Assembly (NCBI GenBank): GCA_963706715.1
Contig: CAVPNI010000004.1
Span: 256,001-320,000 of the forward strand
Reading direction: 5' to 3'
Length of the DNA: 64,000 bases
Origin: an uncultured Verrucomicrobiae bacterium
Lineage (GTDB): Bacteria; Verrucomicrobiota; Verrucomicrobiia; Chthoniobacterales; Xiphinematobacteraceae
The notes beneath the pieces were generated by a model. It did no database searches. It was not told where the DNA came from and saw only the letters and a list, made by a program, of their open reading frames with translations. Position 1 is the stretch's first letter. Each line of letters opens with the position of its first letter. Of the stretch, positions 18,606 through 28,892 are shown in pieces. Made by a program: the position numbers and the translations under genes.

Positions 18606-19910
18606 ATGAATGATCGTAGAGTCGTCGTAACCGGTTTGGGGGTTATAACCCCCATTGGGAATGACGTAAAAACATTCTGGGAAAACATTACCGAAGGCCG
18701 TAGTGGCATTCGCCGCTATCAAGCATTCGATTCGGAAATCTATCCCTGCAAAATCGCCGGAGAGGTCAAAGATTTTGATCCGGTTGATGTCTTCAAGAAA
18801 ACCAGCAAGATCAAATATCCTTCCCTTGGCAAAGATTTTTATAACTCCAGGGCTATCAAAGAAATCCGGCGTACTGACCGCTTCACCCAACTTGCAGTAG
18901 CCGCATCCTACAAGGCTCTGGAGGATTCCGGTTTGGATTTAAACACCGTCGATCGAGATCGTTTCGGAGTCATCATCGGCAGCGGCATTGGTGGTTTACA
19001 GAGTATGGAAAATGAGACCAAACGCCTTTATGAGCGAGGTCCGTCTCGTGTCTCCCCGTTTACCATCGCCACAATGATTAGCAATATAGCAAGTGGCATT
19101 GTCTCCATGGAGTTTTCGCTTTACGGTCCGAATATTTCCATTGTAACGGCCTGCGCGACGGCTAACCACTCGATTGGAGAGGCCTGGCGCATTATCAAGT
19201 TCGGCGATGCGGATATGTTCCTAGCCGGTGGCTCGGAGGCAACAATTACTCCTCTGGGAATATCGGGATTTTCAGCAATGAAGGCATTGAGTCTTCGTAA
19301 TGATGAGCCGGAACGTGCATCACGTCCTTTTGACCGTGATCGCAATGGGTTTGTCATGGGCGAAGGCGCGGGTGTTCTTTTAATAGAAGAATTGGAACAC
19401 GCAAAACGCCGGGGCGCCCATATCTACTGCGAGCTCTCGGGATATGGTTTGACCAGCGACGCTTACCACATGACACAGCCTTTGCCAGAAGGCCAGGGAG
19501 CAGCACGGTGCATGCAAATGGCCATGAAACATGCAAAAATTAATCCCGCCGACATTGATTATATCAATGCTCACGGGACTTCAACACCGCTAGGCGATAT
19601 CTGTGAAACTAAAGCGATTAAGCGCGCTTTGGGTGAGAGTGCAGCCAAAAAGACTTTGGTAAGCTCCACCAAATCCATGACCGGCCACCTCTTAGGAGCA
19701 GCCGGCGGAGTCGAAATGGCCGTCTGCGTATTGGCTATTAGAGACGGCATTGTTCCTCCGACCATTAACTTGGAAAACCAAGATCCCGAATGCGATTTGG
19801 ATTACGTAGCTAATGTAAGCCGCAAACACAAGGTGCGGGTCGCCCTCAATAACTCCTTCGGGTTTGGAGGCCATAACGCAACGCTGCTGGTAAGCGAATT
19901 CACGGGTTAA
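18606..19910 (+). CDS. fabF: 3-oxoacyl-ACP synthase II
   Basis: RRVVVTGLG, TACATANH, YINAHGTST, KSMTGHLLGAAG, NSFGFGGHN. Confidence 0.97.
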   Translation: MNDRRVVVTGLGVITPIGNDVKTFWENITEGRSGIRRYQAFDSEIYPCKIAGEVKDFDPVDVFKKTSKIKYPSLGKDFYNSRAIKEIRRTDRFTQLAVAASYKALEDSGLDLNTVDRDRFGVIIGSGIGGLQSMENETKRLYERGPSRVSPFTIATMISNIASGIVSMEFSLYGPNISIVTACATANHSIGEAWRIIKFGDADMFLAGGSEATITPLGISGFSAMKALSLRNDEPERASRPFDRDRNGFVMGEGAGVLLIEELEHAKRRGAHIYCELSGYGLTSDAYHMTQPLPEGQGAARCMQMAMKHAKINPADIDYINAHGTSTPLGDICETKAIKRALGESAAKKTLVSSTKSMTGHLLGAAGGVEMAVCVLAIRDGIVPPTINLENQDPECDLDYVANVSRKHKVRVALNNSFGFGGHNATLLVSEFTG

Positions 19911-19913
19911 AAA

Positions 19914-20000
19914 GTGATGTTACGCAAAAAAGGAAAACTTGTTGGTTAAAATGATCTTTTTTTGCCTCCGGAGCTTCTAAAAGTGCGTAACGTCAGTTAC
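19914..20000 (-). repeat. Family-A element between convergent fabF and DUF2087-like gene
   Basis: GTGATGTTACGCAAAA...GTGCGTAACGTCAGTTAC. Confidence 0.88.
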
Positions 20001-20314
20001 AAGCATCCGCAATCGCGGCGGATTAGCTGATTGGACTTCCTGCTGATCACTACAGAATTTAATTTATTTGGCTTCCTCCAATAAATTCCTTTTTCCGGAT
20101 TACGTTCCAAAAAGCCACGTTCAAACAATTCACGCCGTAGAAGAGCCCAATCACCAAAGGAATGATGCGCTTGTAGTATTTTGTTCACTTCCTTTTCAGT
20201 GAAATGAATGTTCGGGGCGAAAAAACTCACCAGATGTGCCATCACAGCTTGACGATCCTTTTCCTTACGCGGCCAGCGTAGGACAGTTCCGTTTGCATCG
20301 ATACAACGTATCAT
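19997..20314 (-). CDS. DUF2087-like small protein
   Basis: RWPRKEKDR, FTEKEVNKIL, DWALLRRELFERGFLER, YWR; start uncertain. Confidence 0.7.
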   Translation of the reverse strand: MIRCIDANGTVLRWPRKEKDRQAVMAHLVSFFAPNIHFTEKEVNKILQAHHSFGDWALLRRELFERGFLERNPEKGIYWRKPNKLNSVVISRKSNQLIRRDCGCL

Positions 20315-20321
20315 CTGTTCG

Positions 20322-21500
20322 TTAGGTATACATTTTTTCCGATGGCGTTGAAGCCTCAATTTGATCGGTAGTCCCAGATATCTTGTGAAATTTATTAATA
20401 AAGGCAACTAGCGCTACGATGGCATACAATCCGACTGAAATAAGTATGGCTAAACTGACACCAAAATGCTGTCCAATCCATCCAACAAAGGGCGCCAGTC
20501 CCATAACCAACAAAGAATCCATCAGCGATATGATGGAACTAGCTGTTGCCCGTATAGTATTTTCAATACTGGAGTGAAAAAGCCCTGTGATCAGGATTGT
20601 TTGCACAGTCTGTAGTGTAACATGCATAAAGAAACTCAGCTCCATCAGCCAACGTTCTTGCAAATAGGCAAACAAGGTAGTTGCCACAATGTTAGCCAGG
20701 GCTACCCATCCAACATGATGGACCTTTAATTGAAGCCGTGTTAACAGAAAGGGCGCTAGAATGCCTGAAAAATTTATCAGACAAAACCCAATTAATAAGA
20801 AAATCAGTGAAACGGAGTTAAATTTAACCTGCCAAAACATAAAGGGAGCGATTGCTGTGGCATGGGTTAAAATCAAAAGCCCAGCACTTGGGATATATAT
20901 GATCTTAGAGCACTGCTGAAAAAAATCCTTCCAGGTGAAATCGGGTTTGCTCCTGGATTTGTCTTTAATGAGAGCCAGAGCTACCGCTGCCATTACAAAG
21001 CATACCAGAGCGATTAACCAGATGGCTTCAGGAAAGGAGCGAAATGCCATTACCCCAGCAACCCCGCCTACGAGGGATGCTCCTGCAACCAGATAGCATA
21101 TTCGCCCGAGTGCGGCCGACATGCCATCTGGAGTACGATTTCTGATTCCGTTGATAATCAGTGCCTGCGATGTCCCACTTGCCGCGGCAACTCCAATACC
21201 GGCTAAAACTGACGCGATAAAGAGGCTCGTCGTATTCAGATGAAAAAAGAAGAGGACAAAGGCGCTCATACGGATCAGGTTGCCTATCTGAAGCGCGATT
21301 TTGTTTGAATATCGATCAAAAAGAATTGCAAATGGAAGCTCCGCGACGCTCACTGACAGATTGAATGCTGCTGCCATAACACCAACAAAGGTCAATGAAT
21401 AACCGATTGCTTGAAAATAGAGGACATCAACCACCATAAAGCTGGCTACGCCCGCTGCGGAGAATGCGATAAAGAGATAGACCAGATACGTTGTTCTCAC
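20322..21500 (-). CDS. MFS transporter
   Basis: Many hydrophobic segments; ELPFAILFDRYSNK, SGTSQALI, RATASS. Confidence 0.85.
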   Translation of the reverse strand: MRTTYLVYLFIAFSAAGVASFMVVDVLYFQAIGYSLTFVGVMAAAFNLSVSVAELPFAILFDRYSNKIALQIGNLIRMSAFVLFFFHLNTTSLFIASVLAGIGVAAASGTSQALIINGIRNRTPDGMSAALGRICYLVAGASLVGGVAGVMAFRSFPEAIWLIALVCFVMAAVALALIKDKSRSKPDFTWKDFFQQCSKIIYIPSAGLLILTHATAIAPFMFWQVKFNSVSLIFLLIGFCLINFSGILAPFLLTRLQLKVHHVGWVALANIVATTLFAYLQERWLMELSFFMHVTLQTVQTILITGLFHSSIENTIRATASSIISLMDSLLVMGLAPFVGWIGQHFGVSLAILISVGLYAIVALVAFINKFHKISGTTDQIEASTPSEKMYT

Positions 21501-22120
21501 ATAAATAATGAGCCGTTATACATGATCGTAGGCTCCGGATGATGTCCCATCAGTTTTGCAAATTGAAAGAAGCGGTCGTTTCCAGTGAAACCGTGGGCAT
21601 CCGTGACAGAAATTTTGGTCATGAAAGCCTTCACAACAGCAAAGTCAGAAGCCTCCACTAGAACATGTCGATAGACACGTAATCCTTGCTCGGCTGCAGA
21701 TTTCAAGATATTCGTGGTTAAGGTAGTTCCGTCTGATGCAAATTTAGTAAGCGATATCAAATCGATATAGCATGACCCCTATAAAATGACACATGAGTTG
21801 TCCGGGATTTTTTCTTCAGAGTTTGTTTTAACAAGCTGGCCATATCTGTAGATACGGACGGATTGTTGAAACAAAGTCTGGGGGAACACCGAGCCGTGGG
21901 AACGGCTGGGGTAGCCTGTCCGGCTTTGCCGGACAGCCCCCCCTCACAGGGGCGAGACTTGGCGGGAGCCAAGCGAGGCAAAAAGAACGACAAGGCATGG
22001 TCATTTTATAGGGGTCATGCTATAGATGGAAAACAAAAAATTGTGGGAAAATCGCCTTTGCTTCGCCTAGATACCAAAGACTCCGCATATCGTTTGTATT
22101 TGGCTCCACAGCCTGGCCGC
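21497..22120 (-). pseudogene. Gene remnant upstream of the MFS gene, split by a family-C MITE
   Basis: Removing the MITE and one TA joins ...GDFPTIFCFPS-IDLISLTKF... in frame; its TGA overlaps the MFS GTG start. Confidence 0.55.
21766..22024 (+). mobile_element. Family-C MITE (259 bp including TA flanks)
   Basis: Ends TATAGCATGACCCCTATAAAATGAC / GTCATTTTATAGGGGTCATGCTATA; inverted copy at 48555-48811. Confidence 0.92.
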
Positions 22121-22141
22121 TAGAGAGAGAATAATACATTT

Positions 22142-23410
22142 GGGTTCATCCGCAAAAAGTGTGTTTACAAGTATTTTTCAGAGAATAAAGGAAAGAAATG
22201 GAAGCGACATTTTTAAAACGTGCATTTGGAATTGGAAAAGGGTGGGAATACGAAAGCACGAAATATGTGGGAAGAGAGATAGAATTGCATATAAGCGCCA
22301 AGCGAGAAGAAATTCGATGCCCGAAATGCCAAGGGGGACATATAGCATTGCGAGGGACACGAGAGCGGCGTATTCGCAGTGTACCCATTGGATTGAAACC
22401 AGTGCAAATTGTAGTCCAGGTGCCACGATGCCAATGTCGAAAATGTGGGGAGTTCTTCGACTCCTCCGCCCTTTTGCACCCCAAGGAAGATCCTACACCC
22501 TTGGGCTTGCTCGCCTTGTAGTCGAACTCTCCAGGGCCATGAGTTTAAAAGACGTATGTGCCTATAGCGGATTAGGATGGGACAGCGTTAAGCGCATTGT
22601 GAAAACTGATATGGCCAAGGAGGCGGCAAATGTAAACCTCCAAGAAGTAAAGTGTCTGGCTATTGATGAAGTCTACCTGGGGCGCTTGCATAAATTCATA
22701 ACCCTGGTTATCGATTGGCAGAGTGGAAGAGTGCTTTGTATTGCCAAGGGACGGGGAGAAAATGCCTTGCGGCCTTTTTTCCGCCAACTGCGAAGAGCCA
22801 AAGCTGATATCCAAGCCGTAGCCACCGATTTGGGTGCCGCCTATGCGGCCGCTGTCGTTAAAAACCTGCCTGGAGCGGTGCACATTGCCGATCGCTTTCA
22901 TATCATCAAACTGATGAACGAAAAAATCGATGAACTCCGGCGCGCCCTTCAACGCGAGGCAGACATTATGGGACGCAAAGCCATCAAAGGAACTCGTTAT
23001 CTTTTACTTCGGGGACGTGAAAACCTTCATCCCAATCAACTCCCAAAGCTTGAAGAAGCCCTTAAACTCAATGAACCACTTTCTCTAGCCTATTACCTCA
23101 AAGAGGCGCTGCGCCAACTCTGGTGTTTTAATGATATCAGAAAAATGACGGCTTTTTTTGATGACTGGTGTTGCCGTGTTGCTGAAATTGGTATCCCCTT
23201 ACTCGTCTCCCTTGCCAAAACCTTTCGTCGTTTTCGTTCCTCCATTATTAATGCTTGGACTTACCCTATTTCCAATGGAAAAATCGAAGGTATTAATAAT
23301 AAAATTGGTGCCATGCAACGCTTGCACTATGGCCTTCGTGACTTTAATTTCTTATCCCTTCGTATTCTAACTCTTCACCGCGCTAAACACACTTTTTTGC
23401 GGATGAACCC
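22142..23410 (+). mobile_element. ISL3-family insertion sequence
   Basis: IRs GGGTTCATCCGCAAAAAGTGTGTTTA / TAAACACACTTTTTTGCGGATGAACCC; ISL3 transposase inside; no target duplication visible. Confidence 0.9.
22198..23406 (+). pseudogene. ISL3 transposase, frameshifted
   Basis: Zn ribbon (CPKC...CRKC) in frame 22198; DDE core (LAIDE, ATDL, DRFHIIK, SNGKIEGINNKI) in frame 22140; natural stop lost. Confidence 0.85.
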
Positions 23411-23502
23411 CTTTTTCTCTTTAGGTTCCAACCCAAACACAACCTTTCGGACAGGCTCCTTGTCTCCTGCCCACTCTACTTATCAACAGTTGCAAATAAG
23501 GT

Positions 23503-23718
23503 TCACAATTTCTCGGAAGTCCTCATCACCGAGCTCTCAACAGCTTGCTTCGCTTGATTTCTCCGCCAATGCAGAACCAACACAAAGACTAATGCAAACA
23601 AAAACAAACATTGAAAACTTTGTGATATGAGACTCATTGGCATTTGACTAAAGCGATACCGATTCACATCCATCATGTGAACGGTCGAAATCGTCAAACA
23701 GTTGAAAAAGTTAAAACT
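23503..23718 (-). CDS. 3' exon of intron-split membrane protein
   Basis: Reads SFNFFNCLTISTVHMMDVNRY...SEKL*, aligning with SFNFFTSLTISLVHMMDVARY of the paralogue at 27207-28892. Confidence 0.9.
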   Translation of the reverse strand, partial: SFNFFNCLTISTVHMMDVNRYRFSQMPMSLISQSFQCLFLFALVFVLVLHWRRNQAKQAVESSVMRTSEKL

Positions 23719-25738
23719 GTAGAGTCGAGGACAGGCGCGGTAACTGGTAGGGTTGAGGGAGTAGCTGTTTCCGGCGGCTTTCGCAGATGCCGGTGCCTCA
23801 GGCTCATCCATGGTTTCGTTTCCTGTCCCCGCTCATCAAACCGGACGTGCTGATTTCCAGCATCCGGCTTTCGGACCAAGGTATGTTCATGCTTTCGCCC
23901 ATGGAAAGTTGCGGGTTGTCCGGGTTAGTCGGATCAGTCCGAGTTTCTCATAAAGATACTTGTCGGGGTAGGTTCTGGTTCCGACTCCCCTGATTTTGTG
24001 TTTGTTTCGCAACCACTGGCGCAGCCGATAGGAGGTGTGGGCGTCCACCGCACGATAGGCTTTCGAAACGGGTCCGAGGCTAAAATAATTGCCCCATCCC
24101 CGCAGCAGTGCATTGAGCTCGCTGACCTTCCTGGCAGTTTCTTCTTTGAGTGTAAAACGGGCTGTTTTCTGACTAATACGTTCTATGATCCCTGCGATTT
24201 TCTTCTTGCTGGGCCACGTTGCTATGTAGGCTTTTCCAGTCTTGGTTGAATGGAATCGTCCAAGTGTGTATCCCAAGAAATCAAATGTTTCTTCGGGCAC
24301 CCGACATACTCGTGTCTTTTCGCGGTTAATTTCCAGCTTTAGTTTGCTCATCAGTCTCTGCATTGCTTGGCAGGCTTCCTGTCCCGCTTTTGCGCTCAGG
24401 ATCACGAAATCATCAGCAAAGTTGACGATTTGTGCTTTCAGCCCTTTCTCATATCCGAGTTGTTTCCAGCCCAGGATGAAGCGTCGCATGTAAAGGTTTG
24501 AGAGTAAGGGCGAGATCGGAGCTCCTTGTGGAGTTCCTTTCTTGTGGCGTCGCGCCGGATTGCTCCGCCGCTTGCCTCCTCGCCCATCGCTTTCTTCTAT
24601 CGGCATTTGCAGCCATTGTTTGAGCAGGGCCAGCATCGCTCCGTCGCTGATGCGTCGCGCTAGGCTTTTCATCAGTTCTGGGTGTGGGATGGTATCGAAG
24701 TAGCCGCTTAGATCGGCGTCTACTACTTCGCGTAGTCCTTTATTAAGCCATCCGTGGATTTCCAGAATTGCATCGTGTGCGTTCCGGTTTGCTCGGTAGG
24801 CATATTGCTCGGGCTGTAGGTCGGCTTCGAAGATTGGTTCTATTATTAGTACCACCGCCATTTGTACTACTCGGTCTTTAATGGTCGGTATTCCCAACGG
24901 TCTTTGTTTGCCGTTGGGTTTTGGGATCATTACCCGCTTTACTGCTCCAGGTTTGTAGCTCTTTTCTTTCAGTTCTTGCGCCAGTCGCCCGATCCATTGG
25001 CTCACTCCCTTGGCTTCGATATCCTCGAAGCGGACTCCATCCACTCCTGGTGCACCTGCATTGGCACGGCATTTACGCCATGCTTCTGCTAATATGTCCA
25101 GTCGGTAGATTTTGTCGTATAGGGCATAGAACCGATATTTCGGGTTTCTCTTCGCTTTGGCATGCAACGTTTCTTGCAGTTCCCAGAGTTTTGTTGGAGG
25201 TGGTAGGTTTTCGCCAATCTCCGCTCTGTCTTTACTTGTCACGTTGCCTTGGAACCAAGGCCCCTTCGCTCCGCGGTCATTACTCGCTTCTTTGCTCGTA
25301 TGGGCCTCTCCGACTTCCGCCACCACCGGTTCTCTCTCTCGCGAGATTCCCGTTGGAGTATTTCTATCCCATGGTTGCGGATCTCCCGTGTTCCTACGGT
25401 TATCCTTTGCACACATGCCTTCATCAATACTCCGGCGGACTCCCTGTAGGCTTCTATTGCTCTGTTTGTCCTCGGGGATTTGCCTCAGTGATGCCAGCCT
25501 TCGCCCTTCTGCGACGGGCTCGGCGTCCGCATTGCGTTTTTCGAAGCTTGCTCGATGTTCACTCATTTGAATTAAGGCCTATGTGCTCCCTGGACTACCT
25601 TATGCAGCCCTTTTTCCCTGGTGTGCTTGAACGGTTTCGTTACCTCTGCCGCCCCTCCAGGTGGTTCCGGGCGGAGCAATTAGTTCCCGGACGGGATATC
25701 TTCCTCCCGCTGGATCACCGCGGCTTTTCACGGCGCAC
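23719..25738 (-). mobile_element. Group II intron (2020 nt; probably bacterial class E-like)
   Basis: 5' end GTGCGCCG at 25738; domain V AAGCCGGATGCTGGAAATCAGCACGTCCGGTT (~23838-23870); long domain VI; 3' end CGACTCTAC at 23719; RT ORF inside. Confidence 0.95.
23887..25566 (-). CDS. ltrA: Group II intron reverse transcriptase/maturase without endonuclease domain
   Basis: RPLGIPTIKDRVVQ, DADLSGYFDTIPH, GTPQGAPISPLLSN, NFADD, FDFLGY, LRGWGNYF; the real start is probably near 25220. Confidence 0.95.
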   Translation of the reverse strand: MSEHRASFEKRNADAEPVAEGRRLASLRQIPEDKQSNRSLQGVRRSIDEGMCAKDNRRNTGDPQPWDRNTPTGISREREPVVAEVGEAHTSKEASNDRGAKGPWFQGNVTSKDRAEIGENLPPPTKLWELQETLHAKAKRNPKYRFYALYDKIYRLDILAEAWRKCRANAGAPGVDGVRFEDIEAKGVSQWIGRLAQELKEKSYKPGAVKRVMIPKPNGKQRPLGIPTIKDRVVQMAVVLIIEPIFEADLQPEQYAYRANRNAHDAILEIHGWLNKGLREVVDADLSGYFDTIPHPELMKSLARRISDGAMLALLKQWLQMPIEESDGRGGKRRSNPARRHKKGTPQGAPISPLLSNLYMRRFILGWKQLGYEKGLKAQIVNFADDFVILSAKAGQEACQAMQRLMSKLKLEINREKTRVCRVPEETFDFLGYTLGRFHSTKTGKAYIATWPSKKKIAGIIERISQKTARFTLKEETARKVSELNALLRGWGNYFSLGPVSKAYRAVDAHTSYRLRQWLRNKHKIRGVGTRTYPDKYLYEKLGLIRLTRTTRNFPWAKA

Positions 25739-27169
25739 CGCAAAATAAATCACTAAAGCAGTTGCTGATTGCAGTCCTTGCAAAGAAAAATACCACGTTG
25801 CAATCGCTCCAGCAATGGAAAGCATTAATAGTGGAAAAAACGTGTAGTTCAGGTATCTTGACACGTATTTTATAGCCCTTGGCAACAAAAACATTTCCTC
25901 GGGAACGTCAATTTCTTTCAATATCTTATAATAACGATCTGTTAAGAGAGGACATGAAGGATACTGGAAATCGAGCAAACTTTCCAACGATTCTTGATAG
26001 TACCGCTTCAAATAGAATACATATCCTTCGTCATAGATACTTTTTATCCGCGGCAAATAAAAAAATCCCATTTGTCCACATACTTTAGTCGCCATTGCAA
26101 CCGGACGCTCTAGCCAAGCACGAATATAATAATTAAAACAAAAATTGGAGAAATCCTTCAAGCTGGGAAATTGCGTTCTCAGCTTTCTGAGGGGACCACC
26201 ATAAAAAATGTCGTCGGGGTTAATCTGAAAACCGTGACGATGCACAGTAGGGTTTTGCTTTGCGAATTGGATATCCCTTGTAAATTCCAAAAGATAGTTC
26301 CGTTCTTTCGAATGAAAAGGCAGATGCAGAGCATCCTTTTCAAAAATATCATGCAGAATTTCCGCGTGTGCGGAGAGCAATGTACCTGATAAAAAGAAAT
26401 TGGGACCGTATTGCTTTTTCCAGAGTTGGCCCGGAAAAATTATCATACCAAATGTGAACAAAATGGCGATTAATGAAGTTCCGAATTTCCACAACCATCT
26501 GTCAGGAATCAGTAGGCAGGTAAGAATCAACGGAAGCAAAGCAGCCCCAGCAGCAAATCCCCAAGCGGGTTTCAAATACAAATTCCCAACAGAGAAAACC
26601 ATCAGGATCACTGCCCATATTGTGCTCCACCAGCCGGTACATTTTTCCAAGTATACCAGACGAATAAACTCCACACCTGACAGGATCGTGATAGCGCAGA
26701 ATAGAGGAAACACCCCTTCAGGCCGAATGCTATGTTCTAAGACAATTGTGTTGCGCGAAAATAAAAAGACACTCGCCGCCAACATCGCAACTAATCGCGT
26801 TCCCCAATCCAGAACTCGTCCCTGAGGTAGAAAATTTCTGGAACGAAGAATGACCGCCACTATCAAGGCGGCTGTAGCCAACCCCAGAACGTGTTGAATA
26901 ATTGTAATGGCATGGAGGTGCGGAACTAATTTCAGAACGGCTATCAGAAAAAATGGATAAAGAAAGCTTCTGAACGTAGGTGTATAACTACCCGTCACTG
27001 TCACTTCTATAGCTGGCTTCAGATAACTTCCAGTATCCGGATCCATCATGGGTGCTAGCGGCAAAACAAATCTCACCACCCCACCTAATACAAATATGGC
27101 GACCAGTCCCGCCCAGTAACTCCAATGCCAATTATTCCGAAGCCATATCAATTTCAAATATCTCATCAC
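25739..27169 (-). CDS. 5' exon of intron-split multi-pass membrane protein (GT-C glycosyltransferase-like)
   Basis: 477 codons ending ALVIYFA at the intron boundary; DPDTGSYL, EHSIRPEG, LYLKPAWG and GTLLSAHA are shared with the paralogue. Confidence 0.88.
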
Positions 27170-27206: not shown

Positions 27207-28892
27207 TTAACTTTCTGCGGGAGGCAATTTTTCAATGGAAGTCACTCTAGGGGCTGACCAACCCGCCCCTATGATGTCCCTCGCCTTCTTCTCTTTCCAC
27301 TCCAAAACAAAATTGCGTATCAACGCAAATAGAAACAAAAACTGAAATCCCTGTGATACTAAACTCATAGTAATTTGTCCGAAATAATAGCGTGCGACGT
27401 CCATCATATGGACCAAAGATATCGTCAGGCTAGTGAAGAAATTAAAACTGGCAAGATAAAGGACCAAGATGGCTGTGCCATATAATGACGCAAATTTATT
27501 TCCGGATAATAAGACTACTGCCGCGCCGGCTACCGAAAGGAGCGCCATTGGCAAAAAGAGATAATTTAACCAGACGACAGTTGATGCGAGAACGGCACGC
27601 AAAATGCTCGTCTGCTCTGGCAAGTCAAGTTTCTGAAGAGACTCGAAATAATCCTCCAATGGAGGCCACGGAATATTTGACTGTACCCTCCGTAAATCCT
27701 GTAGGTCTTCATTATAAACAAATTTCAGGCTATCACCGTGCCGGCTACTATATACATTATTCTCCTTCGGAGAGTAAAAGAACTCCATCTGTTTGATGAC
27801 CTTGCTCAACATGGCAAGTGGATACTCCACCCATCCTCGAAAGTAATAAGAGTAACACATCTTGGAAAACTCCTCCGGTCTCTCAAACTGATCAAATAAT
27901 CTATCAATGGGACCACCCCAGAGGAGATTATCGGGGTCGATTTTCAAGCCATAGCGACGTGTTGTAGGATTTTTCTGAGCGTTGCGAATCTCTTCCAAAA
28001 AAGCTGTCAAATAAGTTCTTTCTTTCGACTCAACAGGAAGCCGCAGGACATCCTTCTCGATCACATTGTAGAGAACCTCGGCATGCGCTGAAAGCAATGT
28101 ACCAGGTAGAAACCAAGCGCTCATTGCGGCCAATCTGTTTTTATGGAAAGTACTCGGAAGAATGAAGGCGCAAACTACCAAAAACAATGCTCCTAAACCC
28201 GCCCCCACTTTCCTCAACCATCTTCCAGGAATAAAGACCCAGGCATAAACCAGAGGAAGTAGTGATGTTGCAGCGGCGAGTCCCCAAGCCGGCTTCAAAT
28301 AAACATTCCCAAACGAAAATACGACCAGAACAACAGACCAAAGTATTGCTCTCCCATCGTACTTTTTTAGTAACACTCGGCGCGAGAGCTCAACGCCCGC
28401 CAACATTGTCACGGCACATGTCATCGGAAACAAACCCTCAGGCCGAATACTGTGCTCCATTAAAATGGTAAACTGAGAAAAAAGAAGCCCGCTAGCTGCC
28501 AACAGAGCGACAGCCCTCGTACTCCAGTCAAAAGCGCTGCTGGAAGGGAAAAAAATCCGAAGCCGAAAGATTATTGTCACCACTAACGCCGCAGCCACTA
28601 CGCCAGAAAAATGTTGGATCAAAACAATTGCATATAAGCTCTCAGTTGATGTGAGTACAGCCGTCAGAAAATACGGATAAAGAAAATCACGATATGTTGG
28701 AGTGTAATGACCCGTGTATACCATCCCTACAGCCGGACTTAAATATTCACCAGTATCCGCATCACAAATTGGCAATTGTGGCAGCGACAGCCTGAGATAC
28801 AATCCTAATGAAAATATTATGAACAATATTATCCAATATGATCTACTTAGTATAGCATCTCGGATTCCTGAAAATATGGAATAATGAGACAT
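27207..28892 (-). CDS. Multi-pass membrane protein, GT-C glycosyltransferase-like, intron-free paralogue
   Basis: TM1 followed by DADTGEYL loop; many TM helices; GT-C function is inference. Confidence 0.8.
   Translation of the reverse strand: MSHYSIFSGIRDAILSRSYWIILFIIFSLGLYLRLSLPQLPICDADTGEYLSPAVGMVYTGHYTPTYRDFLYPYFLTAVLTSTESLYAIVLIQHFSGVVAAALVVTIIFRLRIFFPSSSAFDWSTRAVALLAASGLLFSQFTILMEHSIRPEGLFPMTCAVTMLAGVELSRRVLLKKYDGRAILWSVVLVVFSFGNVYLKPAWGLAAATSLLPLVYAWVFIPGRWLRKVGAGLGALFLVVCAFILPSTFHKNRLAAMSAWFLPGTLLSAHAEVLYNVIEKDVLRLPVESKERTYLTAFLEEIRNAQKNPTTRRYGLKIDPDNLLWGGPIDRLFDQFERPEEFSKMCYSYYFRGWVEYPLAMLSKVIKQMEFFYSPKENNVYSSRHGDSLKFVYNEDLQDLRRVQSNIPWPPLEDYFESLQKLDLPEQTSILRAVLASTVVWLNYLFLPMALLSVAGAAVVLLSGNKFASLYGTAILVLYLASFNFFTSLTISLVHMMDVARYYFGQITMSLVSQGFQFLFLFALIRNFVLEWKEKKARDIIGAGWSAPRVTSIEKLPPAES

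Follow-up and report, generated by a model that had tools for sequence, protein, structure and literature searches.

What becomes of a chromosomal gene when a group II intron settles in it: is it broken, expressed through splicing, or placed under the intron's control? The question is raised by a gene for a membrane protein in a 64,000-nt stretch (the window) of contig CAVPNI010000004.1 (positions 256,001 to 320,000; assembly GCA_963706715.1) from an uncultured Verrucomicrobiae bacterium. A first-pass annotation of this DNA had proposed that a group II intron splits the gene, that splicing restores a full-length protein, and that unspliced RNA gives a shorter form, a possible surface-modification switch. 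We favor, with a probability of about 0.75, the explanation that the intron reverse-spliced into a look-alike of its usual target, matching its intron-binding sites 1 and 3 (IBS1 and IBS3), and that partial, maturase-assisted splicing now yields a reduced amount of full-length enzyme. The window was compared with its source genome (G000; 3.04 Mb in four contigs, C1-C4), with four congeners (G001-G004) and with a wider set of 40 relatives.

The limits of the intron are firmly placed (Table 1). It runs from GTGCG to CTCTAC and shows the 5' GUGYG and 3' AY boundaries, and two Rfam models match it, one at each end (RF02003, 59.2 bits at a cut-off of 49; RF00029, 42.8 bits at a cut-off of 40), the RF00029 match ending at the intron's 3' terminus. 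A full twin on contig C3, with the same ends, shows 0 differences in 2020 nt; its flanks are different, so both boundaries are fixed independently. The GC content of the intron is 52.7%, compared with 42.4% and 39.8% for the two exons. The insertion separates codon 477 from codon 478 in a gene of 548 codons, and the joined exons encode 548 residues with no internal stop. The joined product is 47% identical to the upstream paralogue over 527 aa (E 2e-167), gap-free at the junction. Exon 1 starts with GTG, followed immediately by ATG, and carries the Asp that is invariant in the protein's first external loop. The joined frame, the Rfam matches and the twin thus bear out the exon and intron limits, frames and paralogue alignment given in the first-pass annotation. 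Its claim that a full-length product needs splicing is supported as well. The existing annotation (P0006) covers the truncated exon-1 protein only.

Table 1. Features of the interrupted gene, its intron and their surroundings (window coordinates).
Feature	Position	Strand	Description
Exon 1, GT-C-fold membrane glycosyltransferase	25739..27169	-	1431 nt, 477 codons
Exon 2	23503..23718	-	216 nt, 71 codons and stop
Complete group II intron	23719..25738	-	2020 nt, identical to G000:C3:518056-516037
In-frame stop within intron	25715..25717	-	unspliced RNA would give 484 aa ending VRREKPR
Intron-encoded RT/maturase frame	23887..25566	-	559 aa from first ATG, FADD, no endonuclease domain
Domain V and long domain VI	23719..23872	-	AGC triad, 2-nt bulge, 5-nt GAAAU loop
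EBS1 (CGCAGAA, intron nt 226-232)	25507..25513	-	located by covariation in 36 relatives
Probable EBS2 (intron nt 202-205)	25534..25537	-	weaker covariation
EBS3 (U, intron nt 312)	25427	-	pairs with A, first base of exon 2
IBS1 (TTTTGCG)	25739..25745	-	G.U pair at -5
Intact upstream paralogue	27207..28892	-	561 aa, directly behind nuoN
ISL3-family insertion sequence	22141..23409	+	ends ~94 bp beyond stop codon; exon 2 not clipped

The restored frame by itself says little. Group II introns insert between ligated-exon sequences (PMC12584367), and because their targets are of this kind, the frame is restored automatically whenever the insertion is in the sense strand. Exact excision always brings the frame back, so an insertion that is 'in frame' is no evidence of function, and the informative part of the open frame is only that the exons are undecayed.

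Whether the intron could splice here depends on its exon-binding sites (EBS), which we located by covariation. Starting from 62 related loci, 56 at an identity of at least 45% and, among them, 34 with a clear 5' end were retained; with two other copies from the source genome these gave 36 introns (window copy excluded), relatives that are not independent, many being from the same genomes. Complementarity between exon positions -1 to -4 and intron nt 226-229 is seen in 86, 94, 94 and 86% of the 36, exceeding expectation by 0.52-0.56, and position -6 is complementary to nt 231 in 72%. In 92% of 24 introns, against 58% expected, the first base of the 3' exon complements nt 312. The pairing of EBS1 with TTTGCG that the first-pass annotation had called for exists and extends over TTTTGCG, with six Watson-Crick pairs and one G.U; the wobble falls at position -5, where the 36 introns give no covariation signal with intron nt 230. 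The IBS1 duplex is predicted at -6.2 kcal/mol, 2.6 weaker than the -8.8 of the usual target, and the window IBS2 pairs with EBS2 at only one of four positions. In vitro, EBS1 is essential to IIE and IIF introns and the EBS2-IBS2 pairing is dispensable for splicing (PMC3753933). Because EBS1 and EBS3 pair with the junction and EBS2 is dispensable in such introns in vitro, splicing at this site is plausible.

These pairings also bear on the quality of the assembly. The intron is a 2-kb perfect repeat that might have been misplaced into the gene, and several copies of a second intron family in this genome have mismatched flanks; but the flanks here rejoin one exact gap-free frame, and the junction fits EBS1 and EBS3 as a misjoin would not. 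An artefact is extremely improbable.

The intron RNA retains its catalytic end. In domain VI an A bulges out seven bases before the 3' end, and the domain V/VI fold has a z score of -2.04, 6 of 200 shuffles folding equally well. The RF00029 match is the only one in the whole window, which leaves one domain V/VI set and one 3' exon. The intron-encoded protein, a reverse transcriptase (RT) with RVT_1 and GIIM domains, matches TIGR04416 at 351 bits (cut-off 300). Only RT and maturase families are matched, and the protein ends soon after the maturase domain and so has no DNA-binding/endonuclease (D/En) domain. Judging by its relatives, translation probably starts near 25224 at a non-ATG codon. The frame is open for ~114 codons upstream of this likely start (window 25566-25224), back into domain I; these codons may be incidental. 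The RT of a relative (L025) likewise has a long open extension, in a 602-aa frame.

The site in the window differs from that of the other copies. The other three subfamily copies with a 5' end (C3:518056, C3:577217 and C1:671351) are at TTCTGCG inside a Y-shaped DNA hairpin; the usual target is TTCTGCG/AG (the slash marks the insertion point) in this hairpin, and the window site is the look-alike TTTTGCG/AG. Eight sites in the source genome combine IBS2 with a perfect IBS1 and IBS3, of which seven are empty hairpins in the right ends of IS3 elements, and 448 sites equal the window site in the quality of their match. Because the cognate copies are in the hairpin, IBS2 pairs at one position of four and 448 sites are equally good, the window copy is best read as an off-target insertion. 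The homologous site in the upstream paralogue fits EBS1 less well (score 4.5 of 7).

The hairpin is a palindromic element with two hairpins on a closing stem. It is found at C3:165381-165460 (L105) and six further IS3 ends, at C1:15531-15608 (L106) and in the flanks of C3:518056; in the genus it occurs both in IS3 right ends (most copies) and free-standing. It is empty in the congeners G001 (two matches) and G002 (one; loci L110, L111 and L112), where changes in the stem preserve pairing as judged by eye. It was not found in the other 38 relatives searched, and no Rfam family matched it at E values up to 5. It is possibly a REP-like repeat or a bidirectional terminator. Members of the second, class-C-like intron family also abut the IS3-end hairpin, on the opposite strand (C3:129745, C2:355235). 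We compared the hairpin with the geometry of attC sites, and an attC identity was dropped: its R boxes, as we read them, lie directly on the stem without attC spacing, and most copies are in IS3 ends. That idea had come from PMC7923331, and no search for an integrase was made.

The twin also suggests that the insertion is young. Other members of the subfamily in the source genome are remnants, a 58-nt stub (C3:577217) and a truncated relative of 94.9% identity (C1:671351). The host family occurs in 8 of the 40 relatives; with the window gene as query, G003 and G004 gave no match to it and G001 no orthologue-level match. The one clear orthologue, in G002 (65-67% identity, same paralogue upstream), is an intron-free open reading frame (ORF) of 553 aa with conserved synteny and without the target at its junction. 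The intron is thus not kept at this site in the sole orthologue found among the 40 relatives, and the twin is a better clock than this absence. At E 1e-100 the RT is found in 1 of 400 other genomes of the phylum searched, and its best relative elsewhere is 75% identical (L025). Because the RT is scarce in the phylum and its best outside relative is at 75%, horizontal arrival is suggested. From its sequence the intron is recent, and it is probably mobile still. Searches for closer alleles returned little: of 132 candidate stretches from a metagenome scan with exon 1, none was confirmed; a second scan, with an alignment, confirmed 1 of 58 (a 50% match on a contig that ends before the junction); and a protein search with exon 1 brought up nothing beyond the product of the window itself and the G002 orthologue.

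At C4:393282-393702, C3:947185-947353, C3:654770 and C3:255534 there is a sibling family of introns that differs in its EBS1 and in its target. Only deleted or truncated copies of it are left, one internally deleted form retaining both ends, and its target is a repeat with seven empty copies. Both full copies of the window intron lie on the G-rich minus strand (contigs C3 and C4; n = 2), the would-be lagging-strand template. A strand bias is reportedly known for the En-minus intron RmInt1, and it fits this two-copy pattern.

Neither the host protein nor its G002 orthologue matches a Pfam or NCBIfam family, and no Pfam GT-C family was found in 30 homologous proteins scanned. Homologues number 401 representatives at E <=0.001 among 1.84 billion searched, and their Atlas neighbours carry PMT or PMT_2 on 17-81% of members, which is a lead only. 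A model of the intact G002 orthologue, built with 115 sequences, has a mean predicted local distance difference test (pLDDT) score of 93.3. The 20 best structural matches to it in VIA (Z 20.9-10.4) are GT-C enzymes or glycosylphosphatidylinositol (GPI)-transamidase subunits, the next having Z 6.0; they include Pmt4 (Z 20.9, root-mean-square deviation [rmsd] 4.0, 347 residues aligned), Pmt2 (Z 20.6) and ArnT (Z 20.2, rmsd 3.4, 304 aligned). Foldseek ranks ArnT and AglB first, with only two matches at E <=0.001, and a PDB sequence search with another alignment gave only two chance-level matches. By this model the host has a GT-C glycosyltransferase fold. It shares with GT-C glycosyltransferases (Pmt, ArnT, AglB/PglB, ALG9/12, AftB) an invariant Asp after the first membrane helix, and differs in that its sequence reaches no Pfam or NCBIfam family. 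This Asp (D53, first external loop) is invariant in 115 of 115 aligned homologues and is presumably catalytic, by analogy with GT-C enzymes. The suggestion of the first-pass annotation that the host is a surface-modifying enzyme is plausible given the modeled fold. Some homologues (P0023, P0056, P0017) are fused to GT2 glycosyltransferase, methyltransferase or surface-protein domains, consistent with a role in surface glycan modification. The analysis also offers a probable function, that of a GT-C glycosyltransferase, for a family of ~400 cluster representatives that match no Pfam entry, and it amends the annotation of the truncated protein P0006.

The intron interrupts the middle of helix 472-498. 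Exon 2 supplies the second half of this penultimate helix, an H..RY loop and the last membrane helix, and it is 87% identical to the G002 orthologue over 53 codons (aa), compared with 66% for exon 1. Of the 115 homologues, 98% retain R505 and Y506 and 85% retain H499, in a motif that we take to be similar to the H..R-aromatic motif of ALG9/ALG12-type enzymes. Because half a helix, the H/RY loop and the last helix are lost, the unspliced 484-aa product is, on the model, probably inactive rather than an isoform. The proposal that unspliced RNA provides an alternative form of the protein fits poorly with the loss of the near-invariant RY.

We therefore propose a course of events in which an active, endonuclease-less, class-F-like intron that would normally home to the Y-shaped hairpin recently reverse-spliced into the look-alike site, on the sense strand of one of five GT-C paralogues. 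The gene would be co-transcribed with the nuo operon. Maturase-assisted splicing would restore some full-length mRNA, probably at a reduced level, the unspliced RNA would give the inactive short protein, and partial splicing, the redundancy of the paralogues and weak selection may allow the cell to tolerate the insertion. Group II introns reduce host mRNA even when they splice efficiently (PMC6003770), and an intron-rich genome shows a mix of well and poorly matched sites, as here (PMC2882425). The insertion is probably an ordinary, recent and selfish one whose effect is that of a constitutive knock-down rather than of a regulated switch. If splicing takes place in vivo, the locus is a natural test of how bacteria tolerate a fresh group II intron in a chromosomal gene, and a direct comparison is possible between identical twins at a cognate site and at an off-target site without IBS2.

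Several points weigh against this account. Splicing is a plausible prediction from sequence, and three of six group IIE introns failed to splice in vitro (PMC3753933). Exon 1 contains a perfect 7/7 IBS1 at 26695 that outscores the true junction, as do the sites at 26844 and 26352 (6+3). Seven perfect targets are still empty, which is odd for high current mobility. G002, the sole true orthologue, is distant (synonymous divergence dS ~1.5 over exon 1) and gives only loose dating, and gene conversion could also keep the twins identical. Insertions of this kind are moreover rare in the lineage. Both ends were available for 22 related introns, and enough flank for 19 of them; 2 of the 19 rejoin an open frame of at least 60 codons on each side, one antisense and one sense that looks spurious. 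A sense insertion in a long ORF is thus found in at most 1 of 19, which agrees with the remark of the first-pass annotation that bacterial group II introns mostly sit in mobile DNA or intergenic sites. None of nine second-family copies rejoins a long sense frame open on both sides (the best has 39 codons on one side and 163 on the other). The survival of the window copy could reflect selection or just recency.

Some of these points would suit a simple insertional knockout, in which splicing of the intron is too poor and the gene has become a young pseudogene with exons still undecayed. The IBS1 wobble, the weaker duplex, the poor IBS2 and the three better-scoring sites in exon 1 would be expected of it; one IIF intron turned to alternative 5' sites in vitro (PMC3753933), and good splicing is not expected of introns at poorly matched sites (PMC2882425). 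One paralogue (C1:367984) is already broken, and G001, G003 and G004 gave no orthologue-level match to this query. However, EBS1 and EBS3 do pair at the true junction, the wobble sits where covariation gives no signal, domains V and VI and the RT are intact, and EBS2 is dispensable in vitro. We judge a knockout unlikely and retain partial splicing as the better account.

The opposite possibility is an adapted regulatory intron, whose condition-tuned splicing would turn a surface glycosylating enzyme on or off, or change it from a long form to a short one and back. The GT-C fold of the host, the two open exons and the strong conservation of exon 2 against the orthologue (pN, the proportion of nonsynonymous differences, 0.055) are in line with it, and intron-modulated host genes have precedents in C.te.I1, B.a.I2, Avi.groEL and Trichodesmium dnaN. 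Yet the exon conservation, measured against a distant orthologue, mostly predates the insertion, and the orthologue is empty. None of the marks of the known adapted cases is seen: the identical mobile twin and intact RT show an element that has kept its protein and mobility; the 5' junction is canonical, with one domain V/VI and one 3' exon; and the short form lacks R505/Y506. If the best three cryptic 5' sites (26695, 26844 and 26352) were used, splicing would remove 956, 1105 or 613 nt and shift the frame in each case. A run of 13 bases in exon 1 (26365-26353), 613 nt upstream of the junction, matches the C3 target flank exactly and has three occurrences in the genome; this identity is probably due to chance, from conserved codons. 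With a mobile twin, an intact RT, a degenerate target, an empty orthologue and a short form that is likely inactive, the surface-modification switch of the first-pass annotation lacks support, and we regard it as very improbable. Such a switch would be rare and notable if true; no finding points that way. Very doubtful too is a broader scenario in which the newly arrived intron gates a surface glycosyltransferase through splicing efficiency or through intron gain and loss among cells, an early domestication in host-associated Verrucomicrobiota seen at a time when the mobile twin is still identical, with a class-F-like intron specialised on the IS3-end hairpin.

The surroundings are those of a genome rich in mobile elements. 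From nuoN through the paralogue to the host gene the gaps are 22 and 37 nt, and a promoter scan was uninformative, with 4 sites compared with 7.3 in shuffles. The host gene is the last on its strand before the ISL3 element, and because of this position the insertion should have no polar effect. A block between fabF and the host gene (window 19907-23500) is absent in G002, where fabF follows directly; it contains repeats, DUF2087, an MFS transporter, a ~270-nt repeat (21766-22037) and the ISL3 element. Repeats of at least 500 bp and at least 95% identity make up 13.8% of the source genome, and transposase matches at 90% identity or more include 18 of IS701-like, 8 of IS630-like and 7 of IS3 type, family names that are partly our assumption. 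The genome has five members of the host family, two of them disrupted: the window gene and C1:367984, which has a 166-nt repeat insertion (a miniature inverted-repeat transposable element, MITE) and a frameshift. The second intron family, with nine full-length copies, is probably class C, and the mismatched flanks of several of its copies suggest recombination between them.

The RT is 46% identical to that of Ni.ha.I1, 49% to an A. caldus g3 fragment and 29% to that of the g1 intron Sr.me.I2, and it groups with the two g3 references apart from g1 (FastTree support 0.95). The tree references, two g3 and one g1, came from Table S2 of PMC3552965; because they included no class D, E, g2, g4 or basal-F sequence, the intron, judged on its predicted protein and RNA, is named only class-F-like. 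FADD is a g2 signature (PMC3552965), and 53 of 54 relatives with a readable motif have YADD where the window intron has FADD; a g2 assignment from FADD alone was rejected, since nearly all close relatives are YADD. A 5-nt domain V loop and a long domain VI, both present here, are IIE/IIF features (PMC3753933).

The literature matches listed contain no evident described case of a bacterial glycosyltransferase gene interrupted by a spliced group II intron, and nothing specific on group II introns in Verrucomicrobia. Class F sensu lato (g2-g4; Ni.ha.I1, D.a.I1, Pe.th.I2, Ge.ur.I1; PMC3552965, PMC3753933) shares with the window intron an RT-X protein without En, a length of about 2.0 kb, the 5-nt domain V loop and the long domain VI, and Ni.ha.I1 has the same 3' terminal bases. 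The window intron differs in having FADD instead of YADD and in preferring a genus-level Y-shaped hairpin; named class F introns with a listed locus are mostly in non-coding DNA or in transposase genes, whereas the window copy is in a chromosomal protein gene. The introns of G. kaustophilus recA, Avi.groEL and EcKTE56.groEL, T. elongatus TeI4h (tRNA-Ile) and c-Ku.st.I1 (DNA methylase) are closer in arrangement, with an intact mobile sense intron and splicing-dependent expression as proposed here; the present host, however, is a redundant, probably non-essential GT-C paralogue, and the site is off-target rather than a conserved homing site. C.te.I1, in a surface-layer gene of Clostridium tetani (PMC3919590), and B.a.I2 resemble the window intron in occupying a cell-surface-related gene whose spliced RNA codes for a different length than the unspliced RNA. 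C.te.I1 has no ORF, a shifted 5' site, four 3' sites and five isoforms (PMC3919590, PMC4424553), whereas the window intron has one 3' site, a canonical 5' site, an intact RT and a recent twin; it is a well-defined further example of the known group II insertions in host genes.

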